Source: Escherichia phage BEU51
Sequence record: OM632672.1
Length of the DNA stretch: 48,949 bases
Strand: one strand, 5' to 3'
Positions 15,585 through 48,264 of this stretch are shown here, one piece after another. Position numbers and translations under genes: made by a program. The notes under the pieces are model-generated. The model saw nothing but the letters and a program-made list of their open reading frames with translations. It did no database searches and was not told the origin of the DNA. How positions within the stretch are numbered: the first letter of the stretch is position 1; the number at the start of each line of letters is the position of its first letter.

Positions 15585-15597
15585 GGTGTTTACAGTA

Positions 15598-15682: not shown

Positions 15683-15697
15683 AATTAGAGACTATGT

Positions 15698-17335: not shown

Positions 17336-17380
17336 GTAGGTCTTTTGTGGGTGTAGACCACTCATAATAAACTCCGCTAT

Positions 17381-17408
17381 TTGCCTCCTACATGGAGGCA
17401 ATTTTTTT
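17381..17408 (+). terminator. rho-independent terminator
   Basis: TTGCCTCC-TACA-TGGAGGCAA hairpin followed by TTTTTTT. Confidence 0.8.
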
Positions 17409-17432
17409 GATTCCATGTACATAGGAGGCCAT

Positions 17433-17985: not shown

Positions 17986-17989
17986 TTAA
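17982..17989 (+). promoter_or_regulatory. TTAATTAA palindrome upstream of a gene start
   Basis: Exact 8-bp palindrome 20 nt before the GTG at 18010. Confidence 0.3.
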
Positions 17990-18009
17990 TAATTTACTGG
18001 AGAAAATTC

Positions 18010-20563: not shown

Positions 20564-20948
20564 AAACATTAGTACTCAGATTGGTTGTCATCTGGAAGAA
20601 GTAGTTGAGATGCTGGAAGAATTGGCTCCAAATTCTGAAGAAGCATACGATACACTTCATAATGCCATTGTAGCTTTAACTGAATTGTCAGAATTAATGA
20701 AATCCTCTGATAAAGAAGTTTATGCACCTAACAGCAATCGCTTAGCTATTCTGGATGCACTGGCAGACCAGATTGTTACAGCAACTGGCATCGGTACTTT
20801 CTTGGGTATGAACGTACCTGGAGCACTCACTGAAGTGAACCGTTCTAATTATTCAAAATTTGAAGATGGTGAGCCTGTTTTCAATGAGAATAAGAAAGTA
20901 ATGAAAGGTAAGGATTACACTCCGCCTGATTTAACCCCATTCATTTAA
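20487..20948 (+). CDS. hypothetical protein, possibly MazG-like all-alpha NTP pyrophosphohydrolase
   Basis: Glu-rich helical pattern EEVVEMLEE ... ILDALAD compatible with an EExxE...ExxD arrangement; overlaps the upstream gene by 77 nt so the start is uncertain. Confidence 0.3.
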   Translation: MNDSSKDTLVQTQNWFLKAVPSPTSKNISTQIGCHLEEVVEMLEELAPNSEEAYDTLHNAIVALTELSELMKSSDKEVYAPNSNRLAILDALADQIVTATGIGTFLGMNVPGALTEVNRSNYSKFEDGEPVFNENKKVMKGKDYTPPDLTPFI

Positions 20949-24819: not shown

Positions 24820-25336
24820 ACAACGGTATAAGATTTCCGATGAAGGTTTCATCTTAAATCTTGCAAACAATCAACCCCTAAAACCGACTCTCAATCCTAA
24901 TGGATACCTTAAGGTTGGATTAGCTAATGGCGATGGTACACATCACCAAGAGCTACTTCATATTCTGGTAGCTAAACACTTCATCCCTAATCCTTATGGC
25001 TATGAACAGGTAAACCATAAAGACGGTAATAAACTGCATTGTCATAAGGATAATCTGGAATGGTGCTCTGCTACTCAGAATGTTGAACATGCACTTAAAA
25101 CAAAGCTACGTCCTGGTTACATGTCTGCTGACGATAAAGAGAAGTATCTCTTTGAGGTGCTGGCAGGTAAGCAAGTTAAAGACATTGCTTTTGAAATAGG
25201 TAGGCGTCCTGAAACTTTGCATAAGATGCTCAGAACTACTGCTGACCGACTTGGTGTTCGAAATGAGTGGGATGATGTTATGAGGAGAAATAGAAAAGAT
25301 GTTGCTTTACGACAGCTTGCCAAAATCAACTCATGA
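24791..25336 (+). CDS. HNH endonuclease inserted within the DNA polymerase gene
   Basis: HQELLHILVAKHF...NHKDGNKLHCHKDNLEWCSATQNVEHA matches the HNH pattern; own GAGGAG RBS 4 nt before the ATG at 24791; third reading frame relative to both polymerase parts. Confidence 0.7.
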   Translation: MTLLPVAFYEQRYKISDEGFILNLANNQPLKPTLNPNGYLKVGLANGDGTHHQELLHILVAKHFIPNPYGYEQVNHKDGNKLHCHKDNLEWCSATQNVEHALKTKLRPGYMSADDKEKYLFEVLAGKQVKDIAFEIGRRPETLHKMLRTTADRLGVRNEWDDVMRRNRKDVALRQLAKINS

Positions 25337-26129
25337 CTTCACTGGCAAGAAAATTGACAACGTAGTCAAAGCTGGGAGTTCATCAGGTTACGATGGGCAT
25401 AGTCTTCGTGCATATGCTTACTTCGGTGAGATGATGCCTGACATTGAAGATACGGTAGAGTCTGTTAATTCTATTCAGGAGAAGTACAAAGCATATCGTC
25501 AGGATTCTAAAGCACCTACCTTTGCTCTTACCTATCAGGGCACATACATCACTTTGATGAAGAACTGTGGTTTCTCTGAACAGAAAGCTCGAATGGTTGA
25601 AGAACGTTATCACACACTTTATAAGGTAAGTGATGACTGGGTTCAGGCTAAACTAGACCAAGCTGCAAAAGATGGTTATGTAACCGTAGCATTTGGCCTG
25701 AGAGTCAGAACCCCCTTACTTCAACAAGTTATCCGTGGAACCAGTAAAACTCCTTATGAAGCTGAAGCTGAAGGACGTACTGCTGGTAATGCATTAGGCC
25801 AAAGTTGGTGTCTTCTGAATAACCGTGCTGGTTCAGAGTTCATGCGTATGGTGCGGAATAGTAAGCATCGTCTTGATATTCGTCCAAGTACCCATATCCA
25901 TGATGCTCAGTATTTCCTTATCCGTGATGATATGGATGTTGTGATATATACCAATACTCATTTGGTGAAAGCAGTACAATGGCAAGACCATCCTGATATT
26001 GCTCATCCAGATGTTCATTTGGGTGGGGAACTCTCCTTATTCTACCCAACGTGGGCTAACGAGATTGAGATTCCAAACTACGCTACGCCCGAACAAGTCC
26101 ATGAAGCAATCCAAAAGGCATTTAAATGA
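25299..26129 (+). CDS. family-A DNA polymerase, C-terminal part (motifs B and C)
   Basis: YDGHSLRAYAYFG (D.H...FG), motif B-like RQDSKAPTFALTYQGT and motif C-like THIHDAQYF; the start is uncertain and may be supplied by splicing. Confidence 0.75.
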   Translation: MLLYDSLPKSTHDFTGKKIDNVVKAGSSSGYDGHSLRAYAYFGEMMPDIEDTVESVNSIQEKYKAYRQDSKAPTFALTYQGTYITLMKNCGFSEQKARMVEERYHTLYKVSDDWVQAKLDQAAKDGYVTVAFGLRVRTPLLQQVIRGTSKTPYEAEAEGRTAGNALGQSWCLLNNRAGSEFMRMVRNSKHRLDIRPSTHIHDAQYFLIRDDMDVVIYTNTHLVKAVQWQDHPDIAHPDVHLGGELSLFYPTWANEIEIPNYATPEQVHEAIQKAFK

Positions 26130-34744: not shown

Positions 34745-35229
34745 TGGAAATTAAAGTTCACTTTACTAATTACATCGGAACCAAATGTGTAAATGGTTTC
34801 CCGATGAACAAGGCTGACTACTGCAAACTTCGTGGTTGGGATGTACCTGCTAATGAAGACCCGTTAGAGGAGGGTTACTTAGTAGAGTACCCCGATTCTA
34901 ACCCTAACCATGAGCAATTCCGTGGTTATATTAGTTGGTCACCTAAAGCTGCATTTGAAGAGGCATACTGTGATGTAGACAAAGGCTGCACGTTTGGTCA
35001 CGCAGTAGAGCTTATGAAATCAGGTTTTAGAATGTCCCGTAAAGGCTGGAATGGAAAAGGAATGTATATCACATTGGTATCCGGTGAAAACTGGGCTATG
35101 GATAAACATGAAAATACCATATGCATGAAACAGGATTGGCTGGGTATTAAAACCGCTGACAATGAATTTATGCCATGGGTTCCATCTCAATCAGACGTAT
35201 TAGCAGAAGATTGGGTACTAGCTCAATAA
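34744..35229 (+). CDS. DUF2829-like domain protein (family that includes Thoeris anti-defence Tad2)
   Basis: C-terminal half TFGHAVELMKSGFRMSRKGWNGKGMYI ... MPWVPSQSDVLAEDWVL matches the FG.A...K.G....RKGWNGKG core as I recall it; N-terminal ~80 aa are a separate unassigned region. Confidence 0.45.
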   Translation: MEIKVHFTNYIGTKCVNGFPMNKADYCKLRGWDVPANEDPLEEGYLVEYPDSNPNHEQFRGYISWSPKAAFEEAYCDVDKGCTFGHAVELMKSGFRMSRKGWNGKGMYITLVSGENWAMDKHENTICMKQDWLGIKTADNEFMPWVPSQSDVLAEDWVLAQ

Positions 35230-35235
35230 GAATTA

Positions 35236-35262
35236 AAGCCCCTCTAGTGAGGGGCATTTTTT
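35236..35262. terminator. bidirectional terminator at the convergence point
   Basis: AAAGCCCCTC-TAGT-GAGGGGCATTTTTT; A-tract on one side and T-tract on the other, between the plus-strand stop (35229) and the vRNAP stop (35264). Confidence 0.7.
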
Positions 35263-35263
35263 A

Positions 35264-38200
35264 TTAGTGGGTAAGGTTGAACCAAGGATTGAGGGTAGGT
35301 GCTCTTAGTCCTTGTCCGAAGCCTAATGAATAATCCAGTCTTCCTTCAGCCAGCATGGTTAACATGTTGTCCTGAATTGGTAGACCTACATTACCAAACA
35401 TGGCAGGAGCGGGTACTACTGTAGCAATCAGAGAATGTACTGGGTTGTTTCTAATCATGCTCATAGCAACTTTAATGGAACGAATCTTAAAGTTGTAGAA
35501 CCACATCAGACCCATGCTTTCCATATAACCACGGAAACGACCAGGCAATCTGTCATAGTTAACAAACTCTTCAGTTACTTGACCTAATGCTTCAGAAGAA
35601 GATTTTTTCTTACGTTTCACTAAATCATCATAGATGATGGCTTTAGCAATGAAGTCTGAATACTCTACTGTTTTCTGGATACCCTGGAACAGAGCAGTGT
35701 CCTTAGCAATAAGAGCATAACGGCCAGCATTACGTACTTTTTCTGGAAGTTTATTAGCAAGTTTTTCCATGTACTCATGAATCTTACCTTCAGCTACTAA
35801 CAGGTCATCACGACTAATACCAGCATCAGCAATAGAAGAGAACTCACCTGCTTCAATCAAAGGCCAGATGCTCATACGACGATGGCTATCAGTAATAGAT
35901 TGAATCTCGGTTTTAAGTTTACGAACCAGATTAGGATTGCCTTCAGCAGCACGTAATTCTGCTTCTGCATCAATCTGACGTAAACGAGATTTAATGTACT
36001 GATTAATCTCTGACGTCTTACGAGGAATGTTCACAGCAATATCCTTAACAGGAACACCACGTCCAATCATCTGGTAGATGTTAGCAAGGAAGTTAACTGC
36101 CGGTACTACAACAGATTTAACAACAATTACTGTCTTAGCATCCTTCACCAAATTCTGAATGGTATTTTCAGCATTCATTACTACATGATATGCCTTATTA
36201 CCAAATGCACCGAGGAACATCTTCTTAACAGTATCAAGGGTGCTAGATGACCAACGAGAGTTACCAGTCCATACATCACCAATAGATGCAGCACGATAGC
36301 CAAGTGCATCATTCAGCATATCCCTACGAACCCATAACTCATCTTTACCAAAGAGTTCTTCAGCCTTACGACGAGTCTCAATGTTCATCAGGTTAATTGC
36401 ATCAGCCAGTACTGGGTCATCAATTTTACCTAACAGGTTTACATATTGAGATTTATTAGCATTAGAGTCTTTAATGTCTTTCTCATACATAGCATGTAAT
36501 TGCTCGATGAGAATGTCATTAAAACGTTGTGCTTTAGCCTCTTCCACCTGACGACCACGCCATACACCAACCATCTTAGCAAAATGATTGTCTTGGTTTA
36601 GATGCTTCAACATATTAGGGTCAACGGATTGCTCATAAGCAACTACCTGACCTTTGCTGTTATAAATTGGCATCAGTGGTTCACGTCCACGTTCACCTTT
36701 AGCCAGAGCTTTGGTAATACGCTCTACGGTTGGTTTGTCAGTAATACGACCAGCAACCATAGTACCTAACGTAAAGCCAGTACCAATATCCACGCCACCA
36801 GCAGTATTACGAACGTTCTGAAGAATACCTTGAGAGTATGGGGCACGGGCAGCTACTGGGCTGAAGTAATAACCTTTAGAACCAGTACGGAAACCAGTGC
36901 TTCCCTGATAAGTACCAATACGAGTAAAAGATTGGCTATTTAACTTAGCAAACTCTTTATCGTCAGCAATAATCAAATTCACACCTTGCTGGTTCTCTAC
37001 AGGGATATAGCCCTTAAAGTGATTCAGCAAAGTACGGTTATCACCTTTAGCTTTACGCATCTCTTCAGTACGTTGACCCACCATATAAGCAATGGAGAAC
37101 TCCATACCTTCCACTTCTGATTGAGCCAATTCTGACAAAAGGTCGCGGTCAGACTTATTCATCAATTCCAGAGAGTACAAAGTAATGAGCTTATCAATAG
37201 CAGCTACATCTGCCACAGGACCATTAGTAATACGTTCACCTAACAAACGACTAATAGCATGGGCATTACGAAGGAGGTTATTACCTACTTCCCCTGTAAT
37301 CATGTATTGAGCCAATTGCTTAGATTTCTTCTGAACCAGATTCCAGTTTCTACCTGCTTGGTTCTGAATCTCTTTTTCCAGAGTAGAGATTTCATCTTTC
37401 ACTTTCTTAAATGAAGAGAGTAAATCTCTAATTTCAGCCATGCTCATAGTTTCACGTAGAACAGCTAAATCTGTTTTACCTAAACCAGTATGCATTGCAG
37501 ACCACTCGGTATCAGTCAGTTTACGAGAGAACTTACCAGCAATGACTGTAGGTAAATGCTCACGGAATTGTTGACGGTCTTGAGAAATCTGGCTCTTAAC
37601 CAATTTGATTAAGTCATAGACATTGGCATTAGTCTTAGTACGGCCAACAATGTCATTAACTAAGTCATGGAAAGGTTGCCATACTTTACCCTGGTTCATA
37701 GCAGTCATAATACCCTGAGCCACTATTTCACCTTGTTTTTCAGATGCAATAGCAGCAGTCAGTTTAGCCAGATGAGCAACACCTTTAGCAGCTACATTAG
37801 AAGGGTTAGCAATTACCTTATCTGCCTTTTCAATAACAGTTTCAGATAACCGTTCAATGCTATCCGTTACGTACTGATTAGCACGGTCAATGAAATTACC
37901 GGTAGGGGTTGCTACAGCATCATAGAAAGACTCTCGTTTCAGAGCAGCAGCCATGATTGTTTCTGACAGAGCATCAATACTGTCCTGAACATTAGTAGCT
38001 TTCTGGTCACCAGCCATACGACGGTTCAGAGATTCCATTACCTGAGTGCCTGCATTGGTAAGCAGAGTATCTACATCATTACCTAATTTCTTATCTGCTT
38101 TAGGTACAGGCATTTCTTTAATGATTGAACGTAGTTCTTCATTAACCATAGCCAGACCCAGGAATGTAGGTAACAGACTGGTTCTGCCTTTGGCATCTAC

Positions 38201-41200
38201 TTCAACCAGATTAGCACCAGAGATAGTGTCATATTTCTGTTGAGCGTAGTAACGGTCAGCAGGGTTAGTACTATCAGGGTCAGCCATGAAATGTTCTACC
38301 GTAAGGTGTTTCATTACATGGGTATAAAGTTCCTGAGCACGAGCCATAGCGTGTGGGTCAATTGCAGCTTCAGTTGCTAATGCAGCAGTAACCATCTGGA
38401 ATACAGATTGTTCCTGAGCAGTCATATTGAAGCCACGAGACTGAACATCACGAACCAGTCGAGTAGCACTCATTAATGCATTAGCCACATTGCCACGACG
38501 TTCTACTTCTGTAACTGGGTCAGTACGAAGGTAATCAGTTACCAGTTTATCGAAGGTCTGATTCAACTGAGACAGACGTTCATTGTTGCCATATGCTTTG
38601 CTATGGAACAGTGTGCCATCTTTAGCTACTGCCTGAGTTGTAGGTTGGCTACGCATCAGAATTGCAGAGTTAAACAGCAGATTAGAGAACATATCTTCTC
38701 CCAATGCAGGAGCTTGTTTACGTCCCCAAATCAATTTCTTAATGGCCTGATAAACATCTTTCACCATTTGAACCAGTGAAGATGTTCTCTTCTGTTTAGC
38801 AGCAAGAGCACGGTTAGCTAACCCCCAAGCCATAAACTCATTAAGAGCAGCAGCTTTAGAGATAGCTGGGTCAACAAAGCCATTACTCAAATGACCTTCA
38901 ATAGTTGCAATAGCATCAGCATATGCTTCTCTCATTTCTGGAGAATCTTTGGAAATATCCAGAGAACGGAACTGTTCCATCAGACCTTCAAGGTTCTCAA
39001 TAGCCTGCTTAGAAGTAGGGCTTACTTCATTACCCTGATAGAAGGAATAAACTTCCTCAAAGGTAGAAGCATGAACCAGTTCATGAATGAGGGTTTCCAT
39101 AGATGGGCTAACCAGATAAATGGTCTTATCATCGAAGTTAGTCCAGCCATAAATATTGCCTGCCTGAGCTTCTTCCATTTCCTGAGAAGTCAATTCAGTA
39201 ACATTCTTCTGACGAGCATACTCTGCAACCTGAGTAGGTGTACCGTAGATAATCTTATAGTCTTTAGCTGCCAGTGATTTCTGAATCTCAGCAAGAGTAG
39301 CTGCCTGAGTAGATGGCAGATTACTAATCTTAGCCAGATTACGAATAGCAGTAGCAGACAGGATACGAACACCGGATGCCTTATGCTCACGGCCTACCAT
39401 ACCAAAGTCTGGATTCACTGGTTCTTTTTCAGAAACAGTTTCTTCTTTGACTTCAGCCTTAGCCTTAGCGACTTTTTGTTTACGGGCTTCTAACTCTTCA
39501 CGGAAAAGTTTATTCAGTTCATCAGCCTGTTGTTCAGGAGTCATATTGCTGAGGTCAATCTTACCGTTGTTCTGATAAGGAGCACCTACAGCAGCCATCT
39601 GGTCAATGGACAGATTTACCTTATCCAGTACCTTATGGCGAATATCTACACCCAGTGCAATATTACGTAAGTTACGTTCAATCAGAGATGCAGCATTAGC
39701 AATATCATCTACAGTAGCATTCTCACGTTGGTCATATTCCAGAGCAGATTTACCAATTGCTTCCAATGCTTCAGGGGACAACTTGCTGAAATCTACATTT
39801 TTCATGAACTTAGCATATGATTCGTAAACATTCTTAATAGGGTTACCCTGCCAAGAAGTGTAAACAGCTTCATTAGCCTTACGACTAGCATCAGTGATGT
39901 CATTCAAACCAATGTTCATACCATCAAAGATTTTGAGGGTATTCTTTGGTGCACCTTTCATAGTGGAAAGAGTTTGCATCATCATGCCGTCACCAGTACC
40001 AATAGTCATAAATGGAATACCTGCTACACCAGCCTGTGCTGGGGCATAGATACTCATTGGTACACGCATACGGTCATCAAGGTTAGTAGCTAATACCTGA
40101 TTTGCTACTTCTGCATTTTCTGAGCCAGCAATGTAGAAAGTCTGAGAACCAGTCTCAATCATAGGAGCTAAGTTATTCAGAGAAGCCTGAATATCATTCA
40201 GTTCTTTCTGAGTAAGGAAATCGCCTTTCTTCCATGTCGGGTCTTTAGCCTTCTCTGTCAGTTTCTCCTGTACTCGCTGTTTGAACATATCTTCCAGCAC
40301 TACAGATTGAATCTGAGTAGCTTTCTGTAATTGTTCAGTGGAGTACACCAGACTTTCACCCACAGTCTGAGTAATACCATTACGTAGTGGTTCTACAAAG
40401 AAGTGCAGCATATTTTCCTGAAGTGCCTTCAGTTGCTCACCCTTAATGGTATAGGTCTTAGGATTGATTTTCCCTTTGGCTCCTGCACCTGTGGATTGTA
40501 GTTCCAGTACACCTTTACGTTTAACAGGAACGGTAGAAGTCAGTGTTTCCATATCTTTCAGGAAACGAGCAAGAAGTTCTTCAGCATGTGCTTCTGAAGC
40601 AGCTTGCTTACCAAACATTGCCATAGCAGCAGAAATATTTGGGTCTTTAGCACGAGCTTTCAGCACATCGGACATACGCTCATAGATGGCATCAGTAACA
40701 GAACTAACCAGCTTACCTGCAATACCACGAGCACCAGAACCATAGATGGTAATAGTCAGTGGGTTCTTAGCAATACCACGTTTAAGTTCTAAAGCACCAT
40801 TCTCACCGAGATTAATATCCGGTAAGAACAAATCCATCAGAGAAAGAAGACTGTCTATCTGGGACTGAATAGGCATATTAGAAGCGTAGTTACTACGTAA
40901 CTTACCCAACGATTCCATCAAAGCATTAGTGGATGCTTGATATAAATCATTATTGTCAGCAGTAGAACGATGCTCATTCATGGTCTTATTTGGAGAACCA
41001 ATGAACAAGCCACCTTTGGCAATGTTACGAATCCAGTCAGGGGTAAACAGGCCACCTGTCATTAGCATCATGGCATTGATTGGACCATTAGTAACACCAT
41101 CTGCTTCTACATACAGTGGGGTTACAAATGCAGATTTATCCTCTGCTACTAAGTAACGGGAATACTCCATAAGAGCCATCAATGCTACGAATGACTTCCT

Positions 41201-44200
41201 ATCCCCTAATGCTGTATTCAGAACACCAACTGCATTTTCTGGTAAGGAACCAGTGGTATTAAACTCAACCATCATATCAATGGCTGGTTTCAGATTACCT
41301 TCCAGTAATTTAGTCAACTCGTCAGACATAACCTCACGAGTCATAGTATGGACTTTAATGTCCAATGCCTGAGCCAGACCTAACTGGAATGCAGAGAAGT
41401 CTTCATTGTTCTGGTTCGATAAATCCAAAGTAGCTTTAGTAGGTAGGATAGCCTCACGAACCAGTTTGGCTGATTGAGGATTGTATTTACCTAACATCTG
41501 CATACGACCAACACGGGTCATATTATATGCATAGTGAATAGGCACAGTAGAGATGTCTTCACTCTGTGCTCTTACCTGCTCAATGACGGAAAACAGTTGG
41601 TTGTAAGAGTCCTCTACTGAACGGTTCTTACCTTCCAGAGATTTAGCATGATTATCATTAAGTAACTCTTTATTCAGAGTACCAGCACCCATCAGTTCGA
41701 GAATACGGTCTTTACCTAACGTCTCGTAGAATTGAACCATTGGAGTGTGTACATAGAACTCTGTAGCCTGCTCTGCTTTCAATGCAGCCTTCTGTTCTGG
41801 AGTATTACGAACAGCAGGATTACGAAGCTGAGTATTAGCTACAGGAGGAATATCATCACCAAAGAACATCTTCTCTGTAGGATTCACTAAAACAGCTTCT
41901 TCAATAGCAGTAGGGAAGCTATTAATTGGGTCGAAGGAATCCAGTTCAGTAATGGTGTACAGACCAATAGTCTTCTTATTATCTGGGTCAATTTCTGACA
42001 TATCCACGATGTTCTCTACAACATCAGTAGACTCTACAAATGCAGCCAGAATTTCCGCAGCCATTGCTGTAGGGATACCTTTGGTATAGCCCAATGGAGC
42101 ATTTGGATTACGAGATAATCCCCAGTAAGACTCAATTTTCTGAGCCAGGGAACTAACTGCTTCAGTGAGTGTCATACCAGTATCAAATTGCTCTACTAAA
42201 CCTTCTGGCAGCAGAGCTTGGTCAATACCAGTAATAGCAGCAACATCTTTTGCATCTTTGATAGCAGTATTGCTGGTAGCAGTAAGTCTCCACTGAAGAC
42301 CTGCTAATACAGCAGTCTGTAGCAATTGCTCATTGTACTTAAAGGTATCCCCATCCTGTTCAACGATGTTAAGTAACTTACCGCCTACCCAACGGTTGGC
42401 TTCTGTACCCTGAGCAAAACGTTTACCAACATCCTTAGTGTTAAGGAACTTAGCCAGACGGGAACGAAGAATATCAGCAATACCTTCCCCATGTTCCATG
42501 AGTTCTTTGTATCGCTTAATAACTTCCCCATTAAAAGCAGGATTAGCAACTTCTTTCTCAGTAAAGAGTTCATAACGAGCACGGGAAGACAGAGCTTGAG
42601 CTACATCTTTTAGAGGTGCTTCTGAACCAACAGTACGGGATTTCTGTTCTTCCGGTAAGGTAAAGGACAATTTGAAATAGTTCTTAATACCCTCTGCTTT
42701 AGAATCAGCAGTACCTACCAATGAGGGGTAAACAGCATCGATACCTTCTCTTAATTCTTCTGTAACTGTGCTTTCTTTTGCAGAAGTTTCAGTTTCTTTA
42801 ACAGATTCAGTAGGTTGCTTGATGGTGTCCTCATTAGTAAGGTTAACATCCTGTTTTTCAGACTGGTTCACAGGTTCTTTTATAGCCTGTGGGCTAGACT
42901 CTTTAGTAGTAGGTTCTGTTTTAACAGATTCACTAACAGGAGTCTTAGTCTGTACAGTAGATGTAACTGGTTCCTGTTTTGTAACAGGAGTTTCTTTAAC
43001 CTGATTCACGGAGTCAGCTTTCGGTTGAGAAGAAGCAACGTCTCGATTGCCTTGACGGAATGCCTTGACCACCTCAGCAGCAGGAGCGTTAAGACGTGAA
43101 TCCAATGGAGTAACTTTTATATGACTGACCTTCAGTTCCGGGTAAGCCGAAGCGAGGGCATTAGCAATATCCGCTACCGTTTTCGCTTCAAGAGCAACTT
43201 GCTGGGCAAATTTAACCGACTTAGTGTCATAGGGATTGACCCCCAATCCGGTACGGCTACGAACCCATTCTCTGTCAGCAGTAAGAGCTTGGTAGTGGAC
43301 AGACTTATTCTTATCCGCATCCCCCGTAACAAGATGCTCATTCAACGCTCCAACCTTATTCTGCATGTGCTGGGCGAACTGCATAAAGTCGTTCAGGTAA
43401 GCGGAGGCCAACTCGAAATTACCAGAGTTATACGCAGACCGAATCCTATTCGCATGTTGCAACGCAGAGTATTGTCCTTCCTGAGTTCTGCTCTCATCCG
43501 TTTTAATCTGTTTACTCACAATGTCTTGAGGACGTAATCCAAGACGGGCAGCTTCTGCATCATATTCCCGTGCCCCCTTCAGGATTGCAGCAGCATTCTG
43601 AAGGGCAGCAATTTGGCGATTATTCAGTTTAATACGACCATCAGCAGCATGTTTAAGAACAACATTTACAGATTCTGGATTGAGCTTTTCAGGAGCTACT
43701 TCAGCAGCTAATGCTACGTTCTGCATTTCCTGTGGACTGGATTCTTCAGTCACATCCAAAGAACCATTCTGGGCAGATTCATTAATCATTCGATTAATAA
43801 CATTCAGTGCACCAATTACTTTTGGTGTGTTCTGAATATTAGCTGTCAGATTTGTATAACGATTGAGTAACTCAATAGCCGGAGAATCTTTAGGAATGCT
43901 ATCCAGTGCAGCAGGGTCACGGTTAATGAATTGCTCAAACTCTGAAACAGCATCATACATATAAGATGCAGCTTCCATCAGTGCTTGAGGATTAGATTCA
44001 TCTAATGTGTTAACTAGGTCTGCTAACTTTTGAATAACCTGTACTTGGTCAGTAGAACCAGCTACAGCATTACGAATATGCTCTGGTGCTTCCTGATAAT
44101 TTTCAGGATTAAAACGAGTAGCATTCATTAAGTCAGAAACATACTGGTGTGCTGCAACTTTCTGTTCCGGAGTAGCATCAGTTGCTTCAACAGCATCACG

Positions 44201-45766
44201 AATAGTAACTTCTGCTTCTGGTGCTTGAGCCATAGCTTCTTGTGCTGCCTGTGCAACATAGTCATCAGCAACAGGAGATGCTTCTTCATTCTGCTTCATA
44301 ACCCGCTCACCACGAGCTACCAAAGTGTTCTTAATAGGGGAAACAACCTTACCTGCTACACTACCAGCAGCTTTAACACCAGCCATTGTGGTACGCAATA
44401 CAGGAGCAGTTGCAGCACCTGCTAAACGAGCAGCACCAGCCGGAGCCTGTACAACACCAGCAGAACCAAAGCCATAAAGAGCACCTAAACCAGCTTGTGT
44501 ACCGACACCTTTAAGCAAGTCTTGGTTCTTATCAATGTTTTGTTGCTGTGCAATATTCTGAGCCAGTTGGCCTGTAGCACCCTGAACACCTTCTTCCACT
44601 GTTTCACGGGCAAGGTTCATACCTACAGCACCTAAAGAACCAGCACGGAAAGGAGCCATCTCAAAACGAGATACCAGAGGACCAGTTGCAGCAGCAATAG
44701 GTAATTGAATAGCAGCAGCAGTAAGACCAGTTTCAGATGCAGTCTGACGACGAGCCTGTTCTGGAGACATACCATCTTTAATATGTTGCTGATAAACAGG
44801 AGACTTCTCTAAGTCTTTAAGACTCATCTTCATAATTTCATCAGCAGTTTGTTGGTATGCACCACCAGCTTCCATTACACCAACACCAACCATACCTGGT
44901 GCAGCTCTGCCTACAGTAGAAGCAATACGAGCCAGGGACTGAGTACCAGTACCTGCATCAATAGCACCAGCCAATGCAGCACTACGAAGAGTATTTGCTG
45001 GAACAACTGCTTTACCCAGTAAAGATGCACCCTTTAATACAGGACCAGCACCTAATAGAGAACCTACCCCTTCTGCTAACCCATCAGAAATAATAGAGTC
45101 AGTTTGAGCAGCATTCTCAATTGAACCTACAAAATCACGTCCAAATTTAGATAAGGAAGCTACTATGTCATTAGTGCCTTCTTTCTTATCTGTTTGATAC
45201 TGACGTTCACTCTCTACCTCACTCATTAAGTTACGAGCAGCGAAGAGCTTACGTTTATCTTGTAATGCTTGGCTTTGGGTAGCATGGACAGCATCATTAA
45301 ACTTACTCAATTGTTGAGCAACAACAGCACCTGCGTCATCGTTGAGTAAGCCTGCCCCAAGAGCACCAATGCCCCCAAGGGTATTAACAAAACCAAGACC
45401 AACACCAGTAGCAATATCCCCCAGTTCTTCCCCAGGAGTTCTTGTAGTAACTGAATCATTGAATACCTGGTTCCCTGCATCAGCACGAGCGTTGATAAGT
45501 TGTAAGCCTTGCTCAACCCCATACTTATTCATGATTTGCATTGGAGTCAGATTCATGAAATCTGATTGCACTGTCCCTGGTTCAAATGCATTAGCCCCAA
45601 CATTACCAGTACGGGCAGCTTGCATTTGATAAGCAGCATCAGGAGAAACAAGAGGAGTAGTGACACCTTGTTCAGCTTTCTTCTGGGCGGTTGCAGTAGA
45701 GACGTCAACTTGCTTTGCATTGGTTACGCTGTCTGCGAACCCAGCCAGTCTATCAAATACTGACAT
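35264..45766 (-). CDS. virion-encapsidated RNA polymerase (N4 vRNAP-like giant protein)
   Basis: With ATG at 45766 (AGGAAA RBS, 6-nt spacer) the ORF is 3500 aa; central region carries T7-like motifs: motif A-like YVEADGVTNGPINAMM, motif B RGIAKNPLTITIYG (R-x3-K-x7-YG) and a motif C-like KIFDGMN. Confidence 0.9.
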   Translation of the reverse strand: MSVFDRLAGFADSVTNAKQVDVSTATAQKKAEQGVTTPLVSPDAAYQMQAARTGNVGANAFEPGTVQSDFMNLTPMQIMNKYGVEQGLQLINARADAGNQVFNDSVTTRTPGEELGDIATGVGLGFVNTLGGIGALGAGLLNDDAGAVVAQQLSKFNDAVHATQSQALQDKRKLFAARNLMSEVESERQYQTDKKEGTNDIVASLSKFGRDFVGSIENAAQTDSIISDGLAEGVGSLLGAGPVLKGASLLGKAVVPANTLRSAALAGAIDAGTGTQSLARIASTVGRAAPGMVGVGVMEAGGAYQQTADEIMKMSLKDLEKSPVYQQHIKDGMSPEQARRQTASETGLTAAAIQLPIAAATGPLVSRFEMAPFRAGSLGAVGMNLARETVEEGVQGATGQLAQNIAQQQNIDKNQDLLKGVGTQAGLGALYGFGSAGVVQAPAGAARLAGAATAPVLRTTMAGVKAAGSVAGKVVSPIKNTLVARGERVMKQNEEASPVADDYVAQAAQEAMAQAPEAEVTIRDAVEATDATPEQKVAAHQYVSDLMNATRFNPENYQEAPEHIRNAVAGSTDQVQVIQKLADLVNTLDESNPQALMEAASYMYDAVSEFEQFINRDPAALDSIPKDSPAIELLNRYTNLTANIQNTPKVIGALNVINRMINESAQNGSLDVTEESSPQEMQNVALAAEVAPEKLNPESVNVVLKHAADGRIKLNNRQIAALQNAAAILKGAREYDAEAARLGLRPQDIVSKQIKTDESRTQEGQYSALQHANRIRSAYNSGNFELASAYLNDFMQFAQHMQNKVGALNEHLVTGDADKNKSVHYQALTADREWVRSRTGLGVNPYDTKSVKFAQQVALEAKTVADIANALASAYPELKVSHIKVTPLDSRLNAPAAEVVKAFRQGNRDVASSQPKADSVNQVKETPVTKQEPVTSTVQTKTPVSESVKTEPTTKESSPQAIKEPVNQSEKQDVNLTNEDTIKQPTESVKETETSAKESTVTEELREGIDAVYPSLVGTADSKAEGIKNYFKLSFTLPEEQKSRTVGSEAPLKDVAQALSSRARYELFTEKEVANPAFNGEVIKRYKELMEHGEGIADILRSRLAKFLNTKDVGKRFAQGTEANRWVGGKLLNIVEQDGDTFKYNEQLLQTAVLAGLQWRLTATSNTAIKDAKDVAAITGIDQALLPEGLVEQFDTGMTLTEAVSSLAQKIESYWGLSRNPNAPLGYTKGIPTAMAAEILAAFVESTDVVENIVDMSEIDPDNKKTIGLYTITELDSFDPINSFPTAIEEAVLVNPTEKMFFGDDIPPVANTQLRNPAVRNTPEQKAALKAEQATEFYVHTPMVQFYETLGKDRILELMGAGTLNKELLNDNHAKSLEGKNRSVEDSYNQLFSVIEQVRAQSEDISTVPIHYAYNMTRVGRMQMLGKYNPQSAKLVREAILPTKATLDLSNQNNEDFSAFQLGLAQALDIKVHTMTREVMSDELTKLLEGNLKPAIDMMVEFNTTGSLPENAVGVLNTALGDRKSFVALMALMEYSRYLVAEDKSAFVTPLYVEADGVTNGPINAMMLMTGGLFTPDWIRNIAKGGLFIGSPNKTMNEHRSTADNNDLYQASTNALMESLGKLRSNYASNMPIQSQIDSLLSLMDLFLPDINLGENGALELKRGIAKNPLTITIYGSGARGIAGKLVSSVTDAIYERMSDVLKARAKDPNISAAMAMFGKQAASEAHAEELLARFLKDMETLTSTVPVKRKGVLELQSTGAGAKGKINPKTYTIKGEQLKALQENMLHFFVEPLRNGITQTVGESLVYSTEQLQKATQIQSVVLEDMFKQRVQEKLTEKAKDPTWKKGDFLTQKELNDIQASLNNLAPMIETGSQTFYIAGSENAEVANQVLATNLDDRMRVPMSIYAPAQAGVAGIPFMTIGTGDGMMMQTLSTMKGAPKNTLKIFDGMNIGLNDITDASRKANEAVYTSWQGNPIKNVYESYAKFMKNVDFSKLSPEALEAIGKSALEYDQRENATVDDIANAASLIERNLRNIALGVDIRHKVLDKVNLSIDQMAAVGAPYQNNGKIDLSNMTPEQQADELNKLFREELEARKQKVAKAKAEVKEETVSEKEPVNPDFGMVGREHKASGVRILSATAIRNLAKISNLPSTQAATLAEIQKSLAAKDYKIIYGTPTQVAEYARQKNVTELTSQEMEEAQAGNIYGWTNFDDKTIYLVSPSMETLIHELVHASTFEEVYSFYQGNEVSPTSKQAIENLEGLMEQFRSLDISKDSPEMREAYADAIATIEGHLSNGFVDPAISKAAALNEFMAWGLANRALAAKQKRTSSLVQMVKDVYQAIKKLIWGRKQAPALGEDMFSNLLFNSAILMRSQPTTQAVAKDGTLFHSKAYGNNERLSQLNQTFDKLVTDYLRTDPVTEVERRGNVANALMSATRLVRDVQSRGFNMTAQEQSVFQMVTAALATEAAIDPHAMARAQELYTHVMKHLTVEHFMADPDSTNPADRYYAQQKYDTISGANLVEVDAKGRTSLLPTFLGLAMVNEELRSIIKEMPVPKADKKLGNDVDTLLTNAGTQVMESLNRRMAGDQKATNVQDSIDALSETIMAAALKRESFYDAVATPTGNFIDRANQYVTDSIERLSETVIEKADKVIANPSNVAAKGVAHLAKLTAAIASEKQGEIVAQGIMTAMNQGKVWQPFHDLVNDIVGRTKTNANVYDLIKLVKSQISQDRQQFREHLPTVIAGKFSRKLTDTEWSAMHTGLGKTDLAVLRETMSMAEIRDLLSSFKKVKDEISTLEKEIQNQAGRNWNLVQKKSKQLAQYMITGEVGNNLLRNAHAISRLLGERITNGPVADVAAIDKLITLYSLELMNKSDRDLLSELAQSEVEGMEFSIAYMVGQRTEEMRKAKGDNRTLLNHFKGYIPVENQQGVNLIIADDKEFAKLNSQSFTRIGTYQGSTGFRTGSKGYYFSPVAARAPYSQGILQNVRNTAGGVDIGTGFTLGTMVAGRITDKPTVERITKALAKGERGREPLMPIYNSKGQVVAYEQSVDPNMLKHLNQDNHFAKMVGVWRGRQVEEAKAQRFNDILIEQLHAMYEKDIKDSNANKSQYVNLLGKIDDPVLADAINLMNIETRRKAEELFGKDELWVRRDMLNDALGYRAASIGDVWTGNSRWSSSTLDTVKKMFLGAFGNKAYHVVMNAENTIQNLVKDAKTVIVVKSVVVPAVNFLANIYQMIGRGVPVKDIAVNIPRKTSEINQYIKSRLRQIDAEAELRAAEGNPNLVRKLKTEIQSITDSHRRMSIWPLIEAGEFSSIADAGISRDDLLVAEGKIHEYMEKLANKLPEKVRNAGRYALIAKDTALFQGIQKTVEYSDFIAKAIIYDDLVKRKKKSSSEALGQVTEEFVNYDRLPGRFRGYMESMGLMWFYNFKIRSIKVAMSMIRNNPVHSLIATVVPAPAMFGNVGLPIQDNMLTMLAEGRLDYSLGFGQGLRAPTLNPWFNLTH

Positions 45767-45829
45767 AGTAGGTTTCCTATACAAACTTATATCTATTAGA
45801 AATCACACTATACCTAGTGTAAGGACGAG

Positions 45830-45850
45830 AAAAAAGCCCCGAAGGGCTTT
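45830..45850 (-). terminator. rho-independent terminator between the late 644-aa gene and vRNAP
   Basis: On the minus strand AAGCCC-TTCG-GGGCTT followed by TTTTTT. Confidence 0.65.
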
Positions 45851-45866
45851 TGTATTATGGTAGAAA

Positions 45867-47801
45867 TTAACGAGGAAATATATCAGGGATACCCAATCGA
45901 CGTCCGGCATCTCTGCCTAAACTTCTCCGGTTTGCCTCGCTCTCTTCCTGTTTAATATTTTGTAGGCTCTTAATATCCAAATTCTGAGGGTCAGCAGCTA
46001 CAGCACTACGAGCACCATCAAGAAGACGTTTAGCAGTATTAACTCGCTCCTGATAGCGAGGTAGTACACTTCTAAGGTTTTCCTGACCGGTCTGAATACG
46101 ACGCTGTACTTCACGTAAATCAGCAAGTGCAGTATCTAACGTATTCTGTGCTGCATAGATGTTTGATTGAATTTGTGCAGTAAGCTGATTACGAGCATTC
46201 TGTTCAATAGCAGTACCAGTAGTTGCAAGTTTTGCATTTGCTTCTACGGCTGCTTTATCCAGTTGGTAATCACCACCCAAATCAATAACATCAGTATCAA
46301 AGGCATTTCGAATACCACTAAACCATCCCTCTGGTTTACCAGTGATACTGCGTTGAATGATTGCTCCTGCCATAGCGGGAGAAATAGCATTCTGTTTTGC
46401 TACCTCATTGATTTGTCGAACCAGTGCACCTTGGTTAATGCCTTTCAGTTCATTGTTATCAATAATACGTTTAGCCACCTGACCAGTCGTAGAAGGGTCA
46501 ACAGTAGCAGCTTGGTATTCAGGCAGCAGAGTATTACCAATATTCTGCATATTACGAGTACCAACAGTATTACCAGCAACAGAAGTGAATGCTTGTTCCT
46601 GTAATGGATTAATAGAATTACCTGTTTCTGCTTGAGCAATGTAATCCTTCATTTCATCCCATGACAGGTTCTTATAAGCACCCGGAGTATCATCTGGTAA
46701 AGCAGCCCATGTACTCTTCAGATTGCCATTCTTACGAGCATTAAAAATAGCTTCACCCAGTTTGTCTTGGTTCTCCGGAGACATAGGGATGTTCTGCCAA
46801 TCTTCACCAAATACCTTTGGAGCAAAGTCTTTAAGGGTATCTTGGTTAATCTGGTATGCACCAACAGGAGAAGCACCTAGTGTCTTCTTCATAGTGTCTT
46901 GATGCTGAACCACCTGACCTAAGTTCATCTGAGTAATAGGTACATCAGTTGGTGTGAACTTATAGGTAGTGTCATATGCAGAACCATTCCGAGTACCCTG
47001 AGTACCAGGAGGAGATAGAGATGCAGAACCAGTTCCCGGAGTATATGCACCTGGGTATGCTCTATCTAACTGAGATAGTGCACGACTTACTGCTCCTGGT
47101 GACATTTGGTCGAACGTACCCTCTGCAAGCATACGAGCATCGTCAGCACTGTATGCACCACGACGAATATTATTCAGTAACTGCATAGCAGCCTGAGTAT
47201 CCGCATCGTTACGCATATCAACACCTAAGTTGAATAAGCTGCGACGTTGACCAATACCAGCAGTACCCTGTCCTTGAAGGTTGTTCATGTAGTCCATAAC
47301 AACACCAGCAGGAAGGGTTTTTAATACGTCTCCATACTGAGCCTGTGCTGCCTGAACCTTTCTTGGGTCACCAGATTGATAAGCCAGAGCCAATTCCTGC
47401 AATGCAGGAGCAGCAGCATCAGTAGCTGCATTTACCTTCATGGTTCTGTCATTACTGTATCGAGTGAAATCCAGATTTTGTTGTTTAGATGCTTGGTCTA
47501 ACAGATTGCCAGCACGATTATCTAAGTTCTCCATAGTACGAGAAGAAATTAGAGAAGGGTCATAGCCAGCAAATAATGCTCCAGAAGCTAAGGCATTACG
47601 ATACTCATTAGGGTCTTGGTAACGCATGGCTTCAGCCATAATTGCATCACCAGCTTGCTGTCTTGCAGAGTCTCGAAAATCACCTAATGCATTACTCAAT
47701 CCGGCAGTGGCATTACCCAGCATATTGGAGAAAGTACGAATACTATCCCCAACACCAGAGAAAGAAGGAGCATCAACATTACGCCATGTAATTTGAGCCA
47801 T
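45867..47801 (-). CDS. late protein upstream of vRNAP (644 aa), probable virion component
   Basis: Track ORF with AAGAGG RBS 8 nt upstream on the minus strand; Gln/Asn/Ala-rich; function not assignable. Confidence 0.6.
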   Translation of the reverse strand: MAQITWRNVDAPSFSGVGDSIRTFSNMLGNATAGLSNALGDFRDSARQQAGDAIMAEAMRYQDPNEYRNALASGALFAGYDPSLISSRTMENLDNRAGNLLDQASKQQNLDFTRYSNDRTMKVNAATDAAAPALQELALAYQSGDPRKVQAAQAQYGDVLKTLPAGVVMDYMNNLQGQGTAGIGQRRSLFNLGVDMRNDADTQAAMQLLNNIRRGAYSADDARMLAEGTFDQMSPGAVSRALSQLDRAYPGAYTPGTGSASLSPPGTQGTRNGSAYDTTYKFTPTDVPITQMNLGQVVQHQDTMKKTLGASPVGAYQINQDTLKDFAPKVFGEDWQNIPMSPENQDKLGEAIFNARKNGNLKSTWAALPDDTPGAYKNLSWDEMKDYIAQAETGNSINPLQEQAFTSVAGNTVGTRNMQNIGNTLLPEYQAATVDPSTTGQVAKRIIDNNELKGINQGALVRQINEVAKQNAISPAMAGAIIQRSITGKPEGWFSGIRNAFDTDVIDLGGDYQLDKAAVEANAKLATTGTAIEQNARNQLTAQIQSNIYAAQNTLDTALADLREVQRRIQTGQENLRSVLPRYQERVNTAKRLLDGARSAVAADPQNLDIKSLQNIKQEESEANRRSLGRDAGRRLGIPDIFPR

Positions 47802-47811: not shown

Positions 47812-48264
47812 TTAACGAGTTAAGCGATTAGCTGCAATGTAAGCATCAGCCGTAGATTGGTCACGATTTTCTGCAACAGCACGACTACGAGCACGGTCTT
47901 CCAGAGCAGTGTTATAGGACTTAATCTGGTTATTCAGATTAGTGTTAGTAACATCTTTAGCAAAAGAGAACTGACTCTTAGCTAACTTGTTAGCCTGTAA
48001 TGCACCATAGATATTACCCAGTGCGTTAAGACCACCTAACCCCAACTGGAAGGTAGGAATGTTCAGACCCAGTTGGTCAGTAAGCCCTTGAGTCTGCCCA
48101 CCGGTATTCCCTGTAGCACCACCAGTAATATTCTGAAGCCAATCATTACTAAGGATGCCGGATTGCATAGGGTTATAGTTCATGGTTGGGGTATTAAAGG
48201 AACCATACCCATAGCCAAAATTGCTTTGTGCAGATGGGGTTCCAAAAAGGAAATTAGTATCCAT
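47812..48264 (-). CDS. Gly/Asn-rich late protein (150 aa)
   Basis: Track ORF with AGGAGA RBS; low-complexity Gly/Thr/Asn-rich N-terminal half. Confidence 0.55.
   Translation of the reverse strand: MDTNFLFGTPSAQSNFGYGYGSFNTPTMNYNPMQSGILSNDWLQNITGGATGNTGGQTQGLTDQLGLNIPTFQLGLGGLNALGNIYGALQANKLAKSQFSFAKDVTNTNLNNQIKSYNTALEDRARSRAVAENRDQSTADAYIAANRLTR

Follow-up and report, generated by a model that had tools for sequence, protein, structure and literature searches.

An N4-type virion RNA polymerase gene in Escherichia phage BEU51 and the probably disordered linker between its N-terminal and polymerase domains

Phage N4 serves as a model system for the translocation of proteins through phage tails, and with it for a general question: how an enzyme of 383 kDa can cross a channel of about 30–35 Å and then work at a membrane. 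Experiments have shown that the N4 virion RNA polymerase (vRNAP), gp50 (YP_950528; PDB 2PO4, 9PNQ/9PNR, 11GP), is carried in the virion and enters the host by ejection. Its gene, its motifs and a linker at residues 907–1006 have been described, most recently in two cryo-EM papers of 2026 (PMC13434306, PMC13492108), and its catalytic residues are listed in PMC2784036. The polymerase domain, studied as mini-vRNAP (residues 998–2103), has the T7-like right-hand fold with fingers, palm, and thumb. The whole vRNAP has four times the length of T7 RNA polymerase (RNAP), from which it also differs in being packaged and injected, in using hairpin promoters, and in being autoinhibited by a plug and a motif-B-loop. 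The vRNAPs of other Schitoviridae (KP8, G7C gp50, Pseudomonas PEV2/DEV gp71, roseophage EE36phi1) also consist of an N-terminal domain (NTD), a linker, a T7-like RNAP, and a C-terminal domain (CTD) with an HExxH motif, and they share the catalytic residues, a near-absence of cysteine, and a hydrophobic-poor linker at the junction.

The virion RNA polymerase gene of phage BEU51

The window analyzed here is the whole 48,949-nt stretch of Escherichia phage BEU51 (OM632672.1), in which a 3,500-codon ORF with an ATG start occupies 35264..45766 on the minus strand and ends with a stop codon at 35264–35266. The mechanical ORF call starts at a TTG instead (35264..45784, minus strand, 3,506 aa). The ATG at 45766, which has AGGAAA 7–12 nt upstream, gives a protein beginning with MSVFDRL that agrees with N4 gp50 and the PDB chains in its N-terminus and 3,500-aa length. 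This length also fits among the complete vRNAPs of relatives, which range from 3,022 to 3,785 aa.

The DNA of the gene is 100% identical to that of Escherichia phages BEU5/13/14/42/44 and 98.0% identical to that of N4. At the protein level, 3,476 of the 3,500 residues are the same as in N4 gp50 (99.3% identity over residues 1–3500), including the catalytic residues and the HExxH motif; of the 24 substitutions, three fall in linker 1 and none is catalytic. Full-length PDB chains match the translation at E = 0, and the vRNAP-specific Pfam models PF21894, PF21769, PF21867, and PF21624 score 78–325 bits against a cut-off of 27, with vRNAP_dom_2, vRNAP_plug, N4_RNAP_helical, and vRNAP_dom matching aa 1324–2058. 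The ORF, which an earlier note made from the letters had called a giant virion RNA polymerase, thus encodes the RNA polymerase that an N4-type coliphage of the genus Enquatrovirus carries in its virion and injects. Packaging and ejection of the BEU51 protein are assumed from its 99.3% identity to the N4 protein. Because the N4 counterpart is already described and nearly identical, with the gene, the catalytic motifs, and the linker at aa 907–1006 already known, the significance for the BEU51 gene itself is small.

The surroundings of the gene are those of N4. The locus is collinear with N4 24657–48208 and has the same neighbors, gp49, gp51, gp52, and gp53. Upstream on the same strand, at the position of the ejection-protein operon, the ORF list gives a 644-aa gp51 orthologue (45867..47801, minus strand; collinear with N4 45126–47060) and a 150-aa gp52 orthologue (47812..48264, minus strand; collinear with N4 47071–47523). 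Both are ejection proteins: gp51 forms the periplasmic tunnel and is the partner of the gp50 NTD, and gp52 forms the outer-membrane complex (PMC13434306). On the other side, where gp49 and gp50 converge, a terminator scan called a GC-rich hairpin on both strands at 35238..35255, between the two genes.

Catalytic motifs and domain organization

The catalytic motifs follow one another along the chain in the order T/DxxGR, A, B, and C, at 0.41–0.56 of its length, bearing out the suggestion that T7-like motifs occur in the expected order in the central third. All lie on the minus strand and fall on the catalytic positions of N4 vRNAP. The T/DxxGR motif, TRVGR, is located at aa 1417–1421 (41504..41518), where R1421 corresponds to R424 in mini-vRNAP numbering and is invariant in 15 schitoviruses. 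The catalytic aspartate of motif A, D1556 (41099..41101; D559 in mini-vRNAP), is likewise invariant in the schitovirus alignment A1. Motif B extends from K1667 to Y1675 (40742..40768; K670 and Y678 in mini-vRNAP), with the lysine invariant and the tyrosine nearly so across the 15 schitoviruses, and the catalytic aspartate of motif C is D1948 (39923..39925; D951 in mini-vRNAP), again invariant or nearly so in these viruses.

No T7-type chain appeared among the PDB matches, either with phmmer (E <= 0.001) or in a profile hmmsearch (E <= 10). After these searches had missed T7 RNAP, we compared the motifs directly with its sequence. TRVGR aligns with T7 DWRGR (421–425) inside a common YNM...GR...NPQ block, EADGVTNG of motif A with AFDGSCSG (D537), RGIAKNPLTITIYGS of motif B with RSVTKRSVMTLAYGS, and KIFDGMN of motif C with LIHDSFG (D812). 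Block by block, R1421, D1556, K1667, Y1675, and D1948 correspond to T7 R425, D537, K631, Y639, and D812, so that the two enzymes agree in motif order and in their catalytic Arg, Asp, Lys, Tyr, and Asp. The spacing differs, with 135, 111, and 281 residues between successive motifs in the gp50 orthologue and 112, 94, and 181 in T7 RNAP. Pairwise hhalign against T7 RNAP gave a weak match (E 0.0068, probability 5.6%) in which the DxxGR and motif A blocks were correctly placed. The central domain is a single-subunit RNA polymerase of the T7-like type that has diverged strongly.

The protein is best explained as a chain of three folded units with an unstructured linker at each of the two junctions, all encoded on the minus strand. 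The NTD comprises aa 1–906 (43049..45766), within limits taken from PMC13434306, and a Pfam search of this region gave nothing significant. In N4, the NTD is lipid-binding, associates with gp51, and is required for genome injection (PMC13434306). A Gly/Ala/Leu-rich stretch at aa 224–278 (44933..45097) coincides with low-entropy windows that our scan placed at aa 224–305; this stretch was predicted to form membrane-spanning helices, and the NTD incorporates into nanodiscs (PMC13434306). Linker 1, aa 907–1006 (42749..43048), separates the NTD from the RNA polymerase domain at aa 1007–2101 (39464..42748), to which the Pfam matches belong and which matches PDB 2PO4, 3C2P, and 3Q0A at E = 0. Extended to aa 998–2101, the region gives E = 0 against the N4 structures 2PO4, 3C2P, and 9PNQ, and from this match the BEU51 domain probably has the right-hand fold as well.

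At the polymerase–CTD junction, linker 2 (aa 2102–2123, AKAEVKEETVSEKEPVNPDFGM; 39398..39463) is the only disorder-type peak besides linker 1 in the entropy and TOP-IDP scans, and it has been published as an invisible 23-aa linker. The CTD, aa 2124–3500 (35267..39397), is covered by PDB chains 9PNR and 11FW. It is known as an autoinhibitory helical domain needed for encapsidation, and it gave no significant Pfam match.

Composition and variation of linker 1

The earlier note had pointed to a low-complexity segment at about 42760–43040 that looked like a disordered linker. Both peptides that it quoted were found, QVKETPVTKQEPVTSTVQTKTPVSESVKTEPTTKES at aa 922–957 (window 42896–43003) and TESVKETETSAKESTVTEE at aa 986–1004 (window 42755–42811), and the segment matches the published linker. 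It is rich in Thr/Glu/Val/Ser/Lys/Pro/Gln and lacks Gly, Phe, Trp, Tyr, Met, His, and Cys altogether, with Leu and Ile totaling only 4. The 40-aa window with the lowest entropy of the whole protein starts at aa 919 (2.83 bits; mean 3.71, sd 0.19), and the T/E/K/S/P/Q fraction peaks at 0.77, compared with a protein mean of 0.35. Bulky hydrophobic residues are fewest in the 100-aa window that starts at aa 904, which has 3 of them, and the next-lowest real window has 9. In shuffled sequences, the minimum averaged 12.1 and was never below 6, so that 0 of 2,000 shuffles reached 3.

Disorder was assessed with simple scales rather than trained predictors, and by these linker 1, with a mean hydropathy of 0.367 under a Uversky boundary of 0.431, plots in the disordered region and holds the TOP-IDP maximum of the protein. 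A single-sequence AF2 model of aa 801–1106 shows coil at aa 913–1000 between helical flanks at low confidence (mean pLDDT 39.6, below 50 almost everywhere), the linker and its flanks being indistinguishable by confidence. The N4 protein behaves as the note's reading would have it: cryo-EM density is seen from residue 1007/1008 onward only, leaving linker 1 invisible (PMC13434306, PMC13492108), and limited trypsin treatment cuts at residue 998, within linker 1, freeing mini-vRNAP (PMC4496689). The segment itself has no Pfam or PDB match.

Charges are well mixed in linker 1 (FCR 0.31, kappa 0.08), and its Pro content is only 8%. The pattern K-x(0-2)-P-[VT] occurs 6 times, compared with 0.72 expected from the shuffled linker, and 6 more times in the other 3,400 residues; KEPVN is present in both linker 1 and linker 2. 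Tandem Repeats Finder detected no repeat at the DNA level in 42500–43300, so the K-x-x-P-V recurrence does not come from recent tandem duplication. Linker 1 is best explained as a permanently unfolded, well-mixed polyampholyte of short [K/E/T]-x-P-[V/T] units. We also considered a hidden second coding or regulatory feature in the linker DNA, where mechanical ORF calling gives antisense frames with 78 and 94 aa and two weak plus-strand hairpins are present; neither idea found support, and we read these elements as by-products of the biased coding sequence.

The three substitutions that separate linker 1 from its N4 counterpart are N981T, T996A, and K1006R. Among codons differing from N4, 3 of 4 are nonsynonymous in linker 1 and 21 of 205 elsewhere (Fisher p = 0.005). 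Against phage KP8, linker identity drops to 46%, with indels, while the flanks retain 84% and 73%. The values are 15–29% for Axy12, Zuri, Paxi, Ea9-2, QDWS595, and RHEph16, the lowest being that of Ea9-2 (15%). Linker 1 therefore changes faster and with more indels than the flanking domains while its position is retained, which suggests, on sequence comparison, that constraint on its sequence is relaxed.

Relatives were collected by tblastn against phage records and from IMG/VR loci, and linker length was compared in 15 named schitoviruses and 66 distinct IMG/VR relatives. A protein homologue search with aa 723–1206 returned at least 3 fragmentary matches, with low-complexity words dominating. 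All 15 named schitoviruses, which represent several subfamilies, have a hydrophobic-poor segment of 64–113 aa at the linker site, as measured by a crude criterion that gives 124 aa for N4 compared with the published 100. Of the 66 IMG/VR relatives, a set drawn from the best 80 matches and biased to the N4-proximal part of the family, 61 have such a segment with a length of 60 aa or more (median 95, maximum 164). The few loci whose single segment is shorter than about 60 aa have several shorter hydrophobic-poor stretches instead. The structured part restarts at a conserved a-[VF]-[FY]-P motif (AVYP, aa 1011), where the cryo-EM models start.

Length and composition vary between relatives, as had been anticipated. 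The span aligned to aa 907–1006 ranges from about 61 to 340 residues, and the linker sequence is essentially unalignable past the subfamily, with a make-up that shifts between lineages. In the N4 group, the linker is Thr/Ser/Lys-rich and nearly neutral, whereas in most other Schitoviridae it is more acidic and contains more Ala, Pro, Val, and Glu; among the relatives compared, it carries a net charge of −0.31 to +0.12 per residue. A dipeptide bias nevertheless recurs in 37 unalignable linker clusters, where Pro-Val occurs 95 times (47.9 expected) and Pro-Pro 6 times (45.8 expected). The same bias is weaker outside linkers (1.4-fold for Pro-Val, 0.58-fold for Pro-Pro).

Proposed role of linker 1 and alternative explanations

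Taken as a whole, the three-unit protein with linker 1 as a disordered tether for threading and leashing is the explanation that we favor, with a probability of about 85% for the layout and the linker roles together. In N4, linker 1 has been treated as a flexible tether from the membrane-binding NTD to the polymerase, with a published upper estimate of its reach of about 250 Å. In this reading, the NTD (aa 1–906) is the first part to exit the capsid and associates with the inner membrane and the gp51 tunnel. The polymerase domain (aa 1007–2101) transcribes the early genes from hairpin promoters, which helps pull the genome into the cell, and the CTD (aa 2124–3500) restrains the polymerase and is required for packaging. 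By letting the NTD fold and move independently of the polymerase, linker 1 could allow the 383-kDa chain to thread as beads on a string through the tail and tunnel channel of about 30–35 Å. After ejection, it may serve as a flexible leash (a random coil of such length would measure about 70 Å) that holds the polymerase at the membrane exit site of the emerging DNA. The threading and leash roles are models that we infer; they agree with the published beads-on-a-string and membrane-tether model, itself inferred, and fit the note's suggestion that the linker could matter for injection.

Pro-rich spacers of comparable make-up include the Glu-Pro/Lys-Pro region of TonB, the Ala/Pro-rich linkers of pyruvate dehydrogenase E2, the OmpA hinge, and titin PEVK. 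Such spacers are rich in Pro, Glu, Val, Lys, Ala, and Thr, contain few bulky hydrophobics and little Gly, and have X-Pro-X units that favor extended, non-collapsing chains tethering or spacing folded domains. Linker 1 differs from them in that it has no sequence homology to them and is a 100-aa segment within an injected phage protein. A periplasm-spanning role like that of TonB was set aside as the leading model, given that published work places the NTD at the inner membrane and the polymerase in the cytoplasm.

The best-surviving alternative is that linker 1 is a neutral leftover of domain fusion, a spacer with no length or composition requirement. The fast evolution of the segment, with 3 of its 4 differing codons relative to N4 nonsynonymous, its 15–29% identity and frequent indels in more distant relatives, and its lack of a Pfam or PDB match are all compatible with this idea. 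However, a similar segment is kept at the junction in all 15 named schitoviruses and in 61 of 66 metagenomic relatives, single segments under about 60 aa are rare, and the dipeptide pattern recurs across the 37 unalignable clusters. Given the capsid-limited genome size, at least some lineages should have lost or shortened a spacer that is neutral, and we consider this explanation unlikely.

Somewhat less probable still is that linker 1 is a processing site, at which the HExxH module of the CTD or a host protease would free the polymerase from the NTD after injection. The motif, HELVH, lies at aa 2228–2232 (39071..39085, minus strand) in CTD subdomain C1, was previously noted in PMC5512222 and PMC13434306, and has a single counterpart at the corresponding position of each of the 15 relatives. 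On the basis of a published HHpred result, Iyer et al. (2017) united this region with the zincin metallopeptidases and proposed self-processing of injected multidomain "polyvalent proteins" (PMC5512222), and the trypsin cut at residue 998 inside linker 1 (PMC4496689) would also fit. Against cleavage, recombinant full-length protein showed "no evidence of degradation", the NTD was intact on an immunoblot, and the cryo-EM paper draws no protease conclusion (PMC13434306). The N4 transcription apparatus is membrane-associated throughout infection (cited in PMC13434306), which fits an uncut tether, and Pfam metallopeptidase models found no match in the CTD at E <= 0.1.

Avoidance of Pro-Pro together with an X-Pro-Val/Ala pattern is typical of extended Pro-rich spacers. 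Least probable of all, and in our view very improbable, is a docking array in which the K-x-x-P-V units would serve as short linear motifs that bind a partner, for example gp51, a host envelope component, or SSB, because the excess of K-x(0-2)-P-[VT] (6 compared with 0.72 expected) and the sharing of KEPVN by both linkers are offset by motif positions that are unconserved even in the closest genera, by a family-wide signal that is the generic X-Pro-Val/Ala with Pro-Pro avoided, by the replacement of Lys with Glu or Ala in distant relatives, and by a net charge range that is hard to fit to a single conserved partner.

Beyond the tether model, the linker may be a selected element across Schitoviridae, with a floor of about 60 residues, [E/K/A/T]-Pro-[V/A] units, avoidance of Pro-Pro, and a role as a preferred insertion site for injected modules; we offer this as a tentative proposal, with a chance of roughly one in three. 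If it is true, the "string" of the injection substrate would have design rules of its own, and linker length would set the working distance of the polymerase from the membrane exit pore. The family comparison adds variables for injection experiments, namely the presence of the linker, its length range, and the Pro-Val pattern. Extra domains are inserted in the linker zone of some lineages, and the use of this zone as an insertion site for extra effector domains may aid the annotation of giant schitovirus ORFs. G7C has two extra folded inserts there, neither with a significant Pfam match, and EE36phi1 carries an ADP-ribosyltransferase (ART-PolyVal) domain and a second HExxH module.

Identity and catalytic core of the giant ORF

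The longest mechanical ORF spans 35264..45784 on the minus strand (3,506 codons) with a TTG start, and an ATG at 45766 lies six codons inside it, with AGGAAA 7–12 nt 5' of the ATG. Translation from this ATG gives a 3,500-aa protein with the N-terminus MSVFDRLAGF, reproducing the extent (35264–45766) and length of the virion RNA polymerase proposed in the earlier note. In a megablast search of 50,697 phage records, the 10,503-nt gene was 100% identical in Escherichia phages BEU5, BEU13, BEU14, BEU42, and BEU44, 98.6–98.9% identical in eight further Enquatrovirus isolates, and 98.0% identical to phage N4, where the match is annotated as gp50, "virion RNA polymerase" (vRNAP). The protein differs from N4 gp50 at 24 of 3,500 residues (99.3% identity), matches the PDB chains of full-length N4 vRNAP (9PNQ/9PNR, 11GP, and others) and the crystal structures of residues 998–2103, all with E = 0, and carries four vRNAP-specific Pfam families on aa 1324–2058 with scores far over the cut-offs. 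Next to it, arranged as in N4, are the ejection-protein genes gp51 (644 aa) and gp52 (150 aa). Judged by sequence, these matches and this gene order identify the window as an N4-species phage and the ORF as gp50.

Motifs A, B, and C had been claimed in the expected order in the central third of the chain, and alignment to N4 vRNAP bears this out. The catalytic residues of N4 mini-vRNAP are R424, D559, K670, Y678, and D951 (Kazmierczak et al. 2002, as quoted in PMC2784036). With mini-vRNAP residue 1 set to full-length residue 998, the equivalent positions in the window protein lie in TRVGR (1417–1421), EAD(1556)GVTNG, RGIAK(1667)NPLTITIY(1675)GS, and KIFD(1948)GMN, which is at 41–56% of the chain and in the same motif order as in T7. 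We fetched the T7 RNA polymerase gene sequence for direct motif comparison, in which the N4 blocks aligned to those of T7 for T/DxxGR (YNMTRVGRMQMLGKYNPQS to YNMDWRGRVYAVSMFNPQG), motif A (EADGVTNG to AFDGSCSG), motif B (RGIAKNPLTITIYGS to RSVTKRSVMTLAYGS), and motif C (IFDGM to IHDSF). When a 15-phage profile was compared with T7 by hhalign, the first two blocks were in register. All 15 schitoviruses in the alignment share the Arg, the motif A Asp, and the motif B Lys, and the Tyr is nearly invariant. Neither phmmer nor profile hmmsearch against the PDB detected overall similarity to T7 RNAP, in agreement with the description of N4 vRNAP in the literature as a "highly-diverged member" of the T7-like family.

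Cysteine is absent from the window protein and from 13 of 15 relatives, N4 among them, with one cysteine in G7C and two in the partial HN03 sequence; earlier literature has remarked that this absence may bear on host entry. In Burkholderia phage HN03 and Salmonella phage As2, vRNAP is annotated as 2–3 consecutive overlapping CDSs in place of a single giant ORF, which points to frameshifts or sequencing errors in the genomes as deposited.

A probable disordered connector between the NTD and the polymerase domain

The Thr/Glu/Lys/Ser/Pro-rich segment at about 42760–43040, which the earlier note took for a disordered linker, corresponds to linker 1 (aa 907–1006; 42749–43048), between the NTD (aa 1–906) and the polymerase domain (aa 1007–2101), and both peptides quoted from it were located, at aa 922–957 (42896–43003) and aa 986–1004 (42755–42811). 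Its low complexity was confirmed by composition. The entropy minimum of the protein (40-residue windows) begins at aa 919, with 2.83 bits versus 3.71 ± 0.19, and the T/E/K/S/P/Q fraction peaks at 0.77 versus a protein mean of 0.35. Residues 907–1006 include no Gly, Phe, Trp, Tyr, Met, His, or Cys, and Leu and Ile total four. The poorest 100-residue window has three bulky hydrophobics, whereas the minimum in 2,000 shuffles was at least six and the next-poorest real window has nine. The disorder assignment was supported by simple scales: in the charge-hydropathy plot linker 1 falls on the disordered side and the three folded domains on the ordered side, and the TOP-IDP maximum of the whole protein is in linker 1. 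An AF2 single-sequence model gives coil at aa 913–1000 with helical flanks, at a confidence so low throughout that it carries no weight. The segment is a well-mixed polyampholyte (FCR 0.31, NCPR −0.05, kappa 0.08). It is more than composition bias alone: linker 1 has six copies of K-x(0-2)-P-[V/T] versus 0.72 expected when its own residues are shuffled; no DNA-level tandem repeat was found in its coding DNA.

Linker 1 accounts for half of all matches to this pattern in the protein. The sole other region flagged by both entropy and TOP-IDP, aa 2076–2120 (TOP-IDP peak at approximately 2096–2111), overlaps the published linker 2 (aa 2102–2123; 39398–39463), between the polymerase domain and the CTD (aa 2124–3500). 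KEPVN is found in linker 1 (aa 963–967) and linker 2 (aa 2114–2118), which may reflect chance or convergent linker composition. Two antisense mechanical ORFs over the linker-1 DNA, 42768–43004 (+, 78 aa) and 42815–43099 (+, 94 aa), are probably open only as a side effect of the skewed codon content of linker 1, and nothing else supports them.

Full-length N4 vRNAP has been solved by cryo-EM in two 2026 papers. Bellis et al. (PMC13434306) resolved residues 1007/1008–3500, with the NTD invisible and the equivalent of linker 1 unresolved, estimated that the NTD-polymerase linker "could span as much as 250 Å", and found that the isolated NTD incorporates into nanodiscs. Narwal et al. (PMC13492108) call the same element "linker 1" and give the same modular picture. 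The limited trypsin digestion defining mini-vRNAP cut at residue 998, within linker 1 (PMC4496689). The observation of the segment and its interpretation are thus correct, and both are in the literature for a 99.3%-identical protein; the feature is a known one. The published reading, in which linker 1 is an unfolded connector, is the best supported: the linker would let the NTD and the polymerase act as separate beads through a channel of approximately 30–35 Å and, after passage, would keep the polymerase tethered, through the membrane-bound NTD, close to where the DNA exits.

Variation of the linker among relatives

The suggestion that linker length and composition differ between relatives was borne out. 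By tblastn, vRNAP homologues were found in 347 phage records, and 14 from different genera and subfamilies were fetched and aligned with the window protein (15 in total). A hydrophobic-poor segment of 64–113 aa is present at the NTD-polymerase junction in all 15 schitoviruses, and the span aligned between N4 residues 906 and 1007 is 61–109 residues in most relatives, 247 in G7C, and 340 in roseophage EE36phi1. The KP8 linker is 46% identical to that of the window protein, versus 84% and 73% in the flanks, and the Ea9-2 linker is 15% identical, versus 58% and 36%, with numerous indels in the linker alignments. Compared with N4, three of four differing codons in the linker are nonsynonymous versus 21 of 205 elsewhere (Fisher p = 0.005). 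We also scanned IMG/VR with a palm-region profile; among 66 distinct sequences with sufficient upstream sequence, from the best 80 loci, 61 have a hydrophobic-poor segment of at least 60 aa in the corresponding zone (median 95, maximum 164), and the others mostly have several shorter hydrophobic-poor segments.

Linkers of the N4 subfamily are Thr/Ser/Lys-rich and near-neutral, whereas those of other lineages are mostly more acidic with more Ala, Pro, Val, and Glu; net charge per residue ranges from −0.31 to +0.12. In the 61 pooled linkers, the favoured residues after Pro are Val (z = 12) and Ala, and those before it Glu, Lys, Ala, and Thr, with Pro-Pro avoided (z = −7.9). Across 37 unalignable clusters, each entered as one representative, there are 95 Pro-Val dipeptides versus 47.9 expected and six Pro-Pro versus 45.8; outside linkers these biases are weaker (1.4-fold and 0.58-fold, respectively). 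Across the family, the presence, approximate length, and amino-acid pattern of the linker are kept while its sequence is free to change, which we read as the signature of a spacer selected for its physical properties. Much less probable are the proposals that linker 1 is a neutral leftover of domain fusion, a protease processing site tied to the HExxH module, or an array of short binding motifs. A family-wide linker comparison was not found in the main text of PMC13434306 or PMC13492108, and ours is a small addition to knowledge rather than a new kind of element.

Some relatives carry extra folded modules in this zone, bordered by short low-complexity stretches. The G7C-type linker is divided by two folded inserts of approximately 100 and 135 aa (G7C aa 987–1265), neither with a Pfam match. 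The EE36phi1 zone (aa 928–1425) contains an ART-PolyVal ADP-ribosyltransferase domain (E = 4e-10, 40.9 bits, cut-off 31.2), a further hydrophobic module, and a module with an HETGH motif, parted by short low-complexity stretches. Iyer et al. (2017; PMC5512222), in their work on polyvalent proteins, had described both the fusion of ART to roseophage vRNAPs and the HExxH region (aa 2130–2448) of N4 gp50, and only the placement of these insertions within the NTD-polymerase linker zone is new from our comparison. In the window protein the already described HExxH is HELVH at aa 2228–2232 (39071–39085, minus), in the first CTD subdomain, with one copy at the equivalent place in 15 of 15 relatives. 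No Pfam metallopeptidase model matched this region, and a peptidase role is putative.

Other features of the genome

Sigma-70-like promoter matches are depleted in gp50 and its surroundings, 35000–46000 (7 versus 22.9 ± 5.1 in shuffles). A GC-rich hairpin at 35238–35255, between the convergent gp49 and gp50, is terminator-like on both strands in a terminator scan. A second hairpin with a T run (AAAAGCCCTTCGGGGCTTTTTT, minus strand) occupies the gap (approximately 45829–45850) from the gp51 stop to the gp50 start, two genes described as belonging to a single ejection operon.

The window and N4 are not collinear. Positions 1–2527 correspond to rIIA (N4 15460–17986), the N4 left end (N4 1–15459) follows approximately 25 nt later at 2553–18010, and rIIB (N4 17986 onward) directly follows at 18011, placing rIIA at the record start and not between gp32 and rIIB. 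Because the BEU5, BEU13, BEU14, BEU42, and BEU44 records likewise open with rIIA at position 1, this displacement is more likely an artefact of assembly or of the record than a biological feature. Approximately 140 nt at 20623–20762, in the gp35/gp36 region (N4 20599–20728), gave no megablast alignment to N4, with flanks 97–98% identical. An insertion of approximately 700 nt relative to N4 (24684–25385) lies inside the DNA polymerase gene (N4 gp39), contains an ORF at 24722–25336 (+) for a 204-aa NUMOD4 + HNH_3 endonuclease, and breaks the family A polymerase into two ORFs (683 and 276 aa); the arrangement resembles a polymerase split by insertion of a homing endonuclease.
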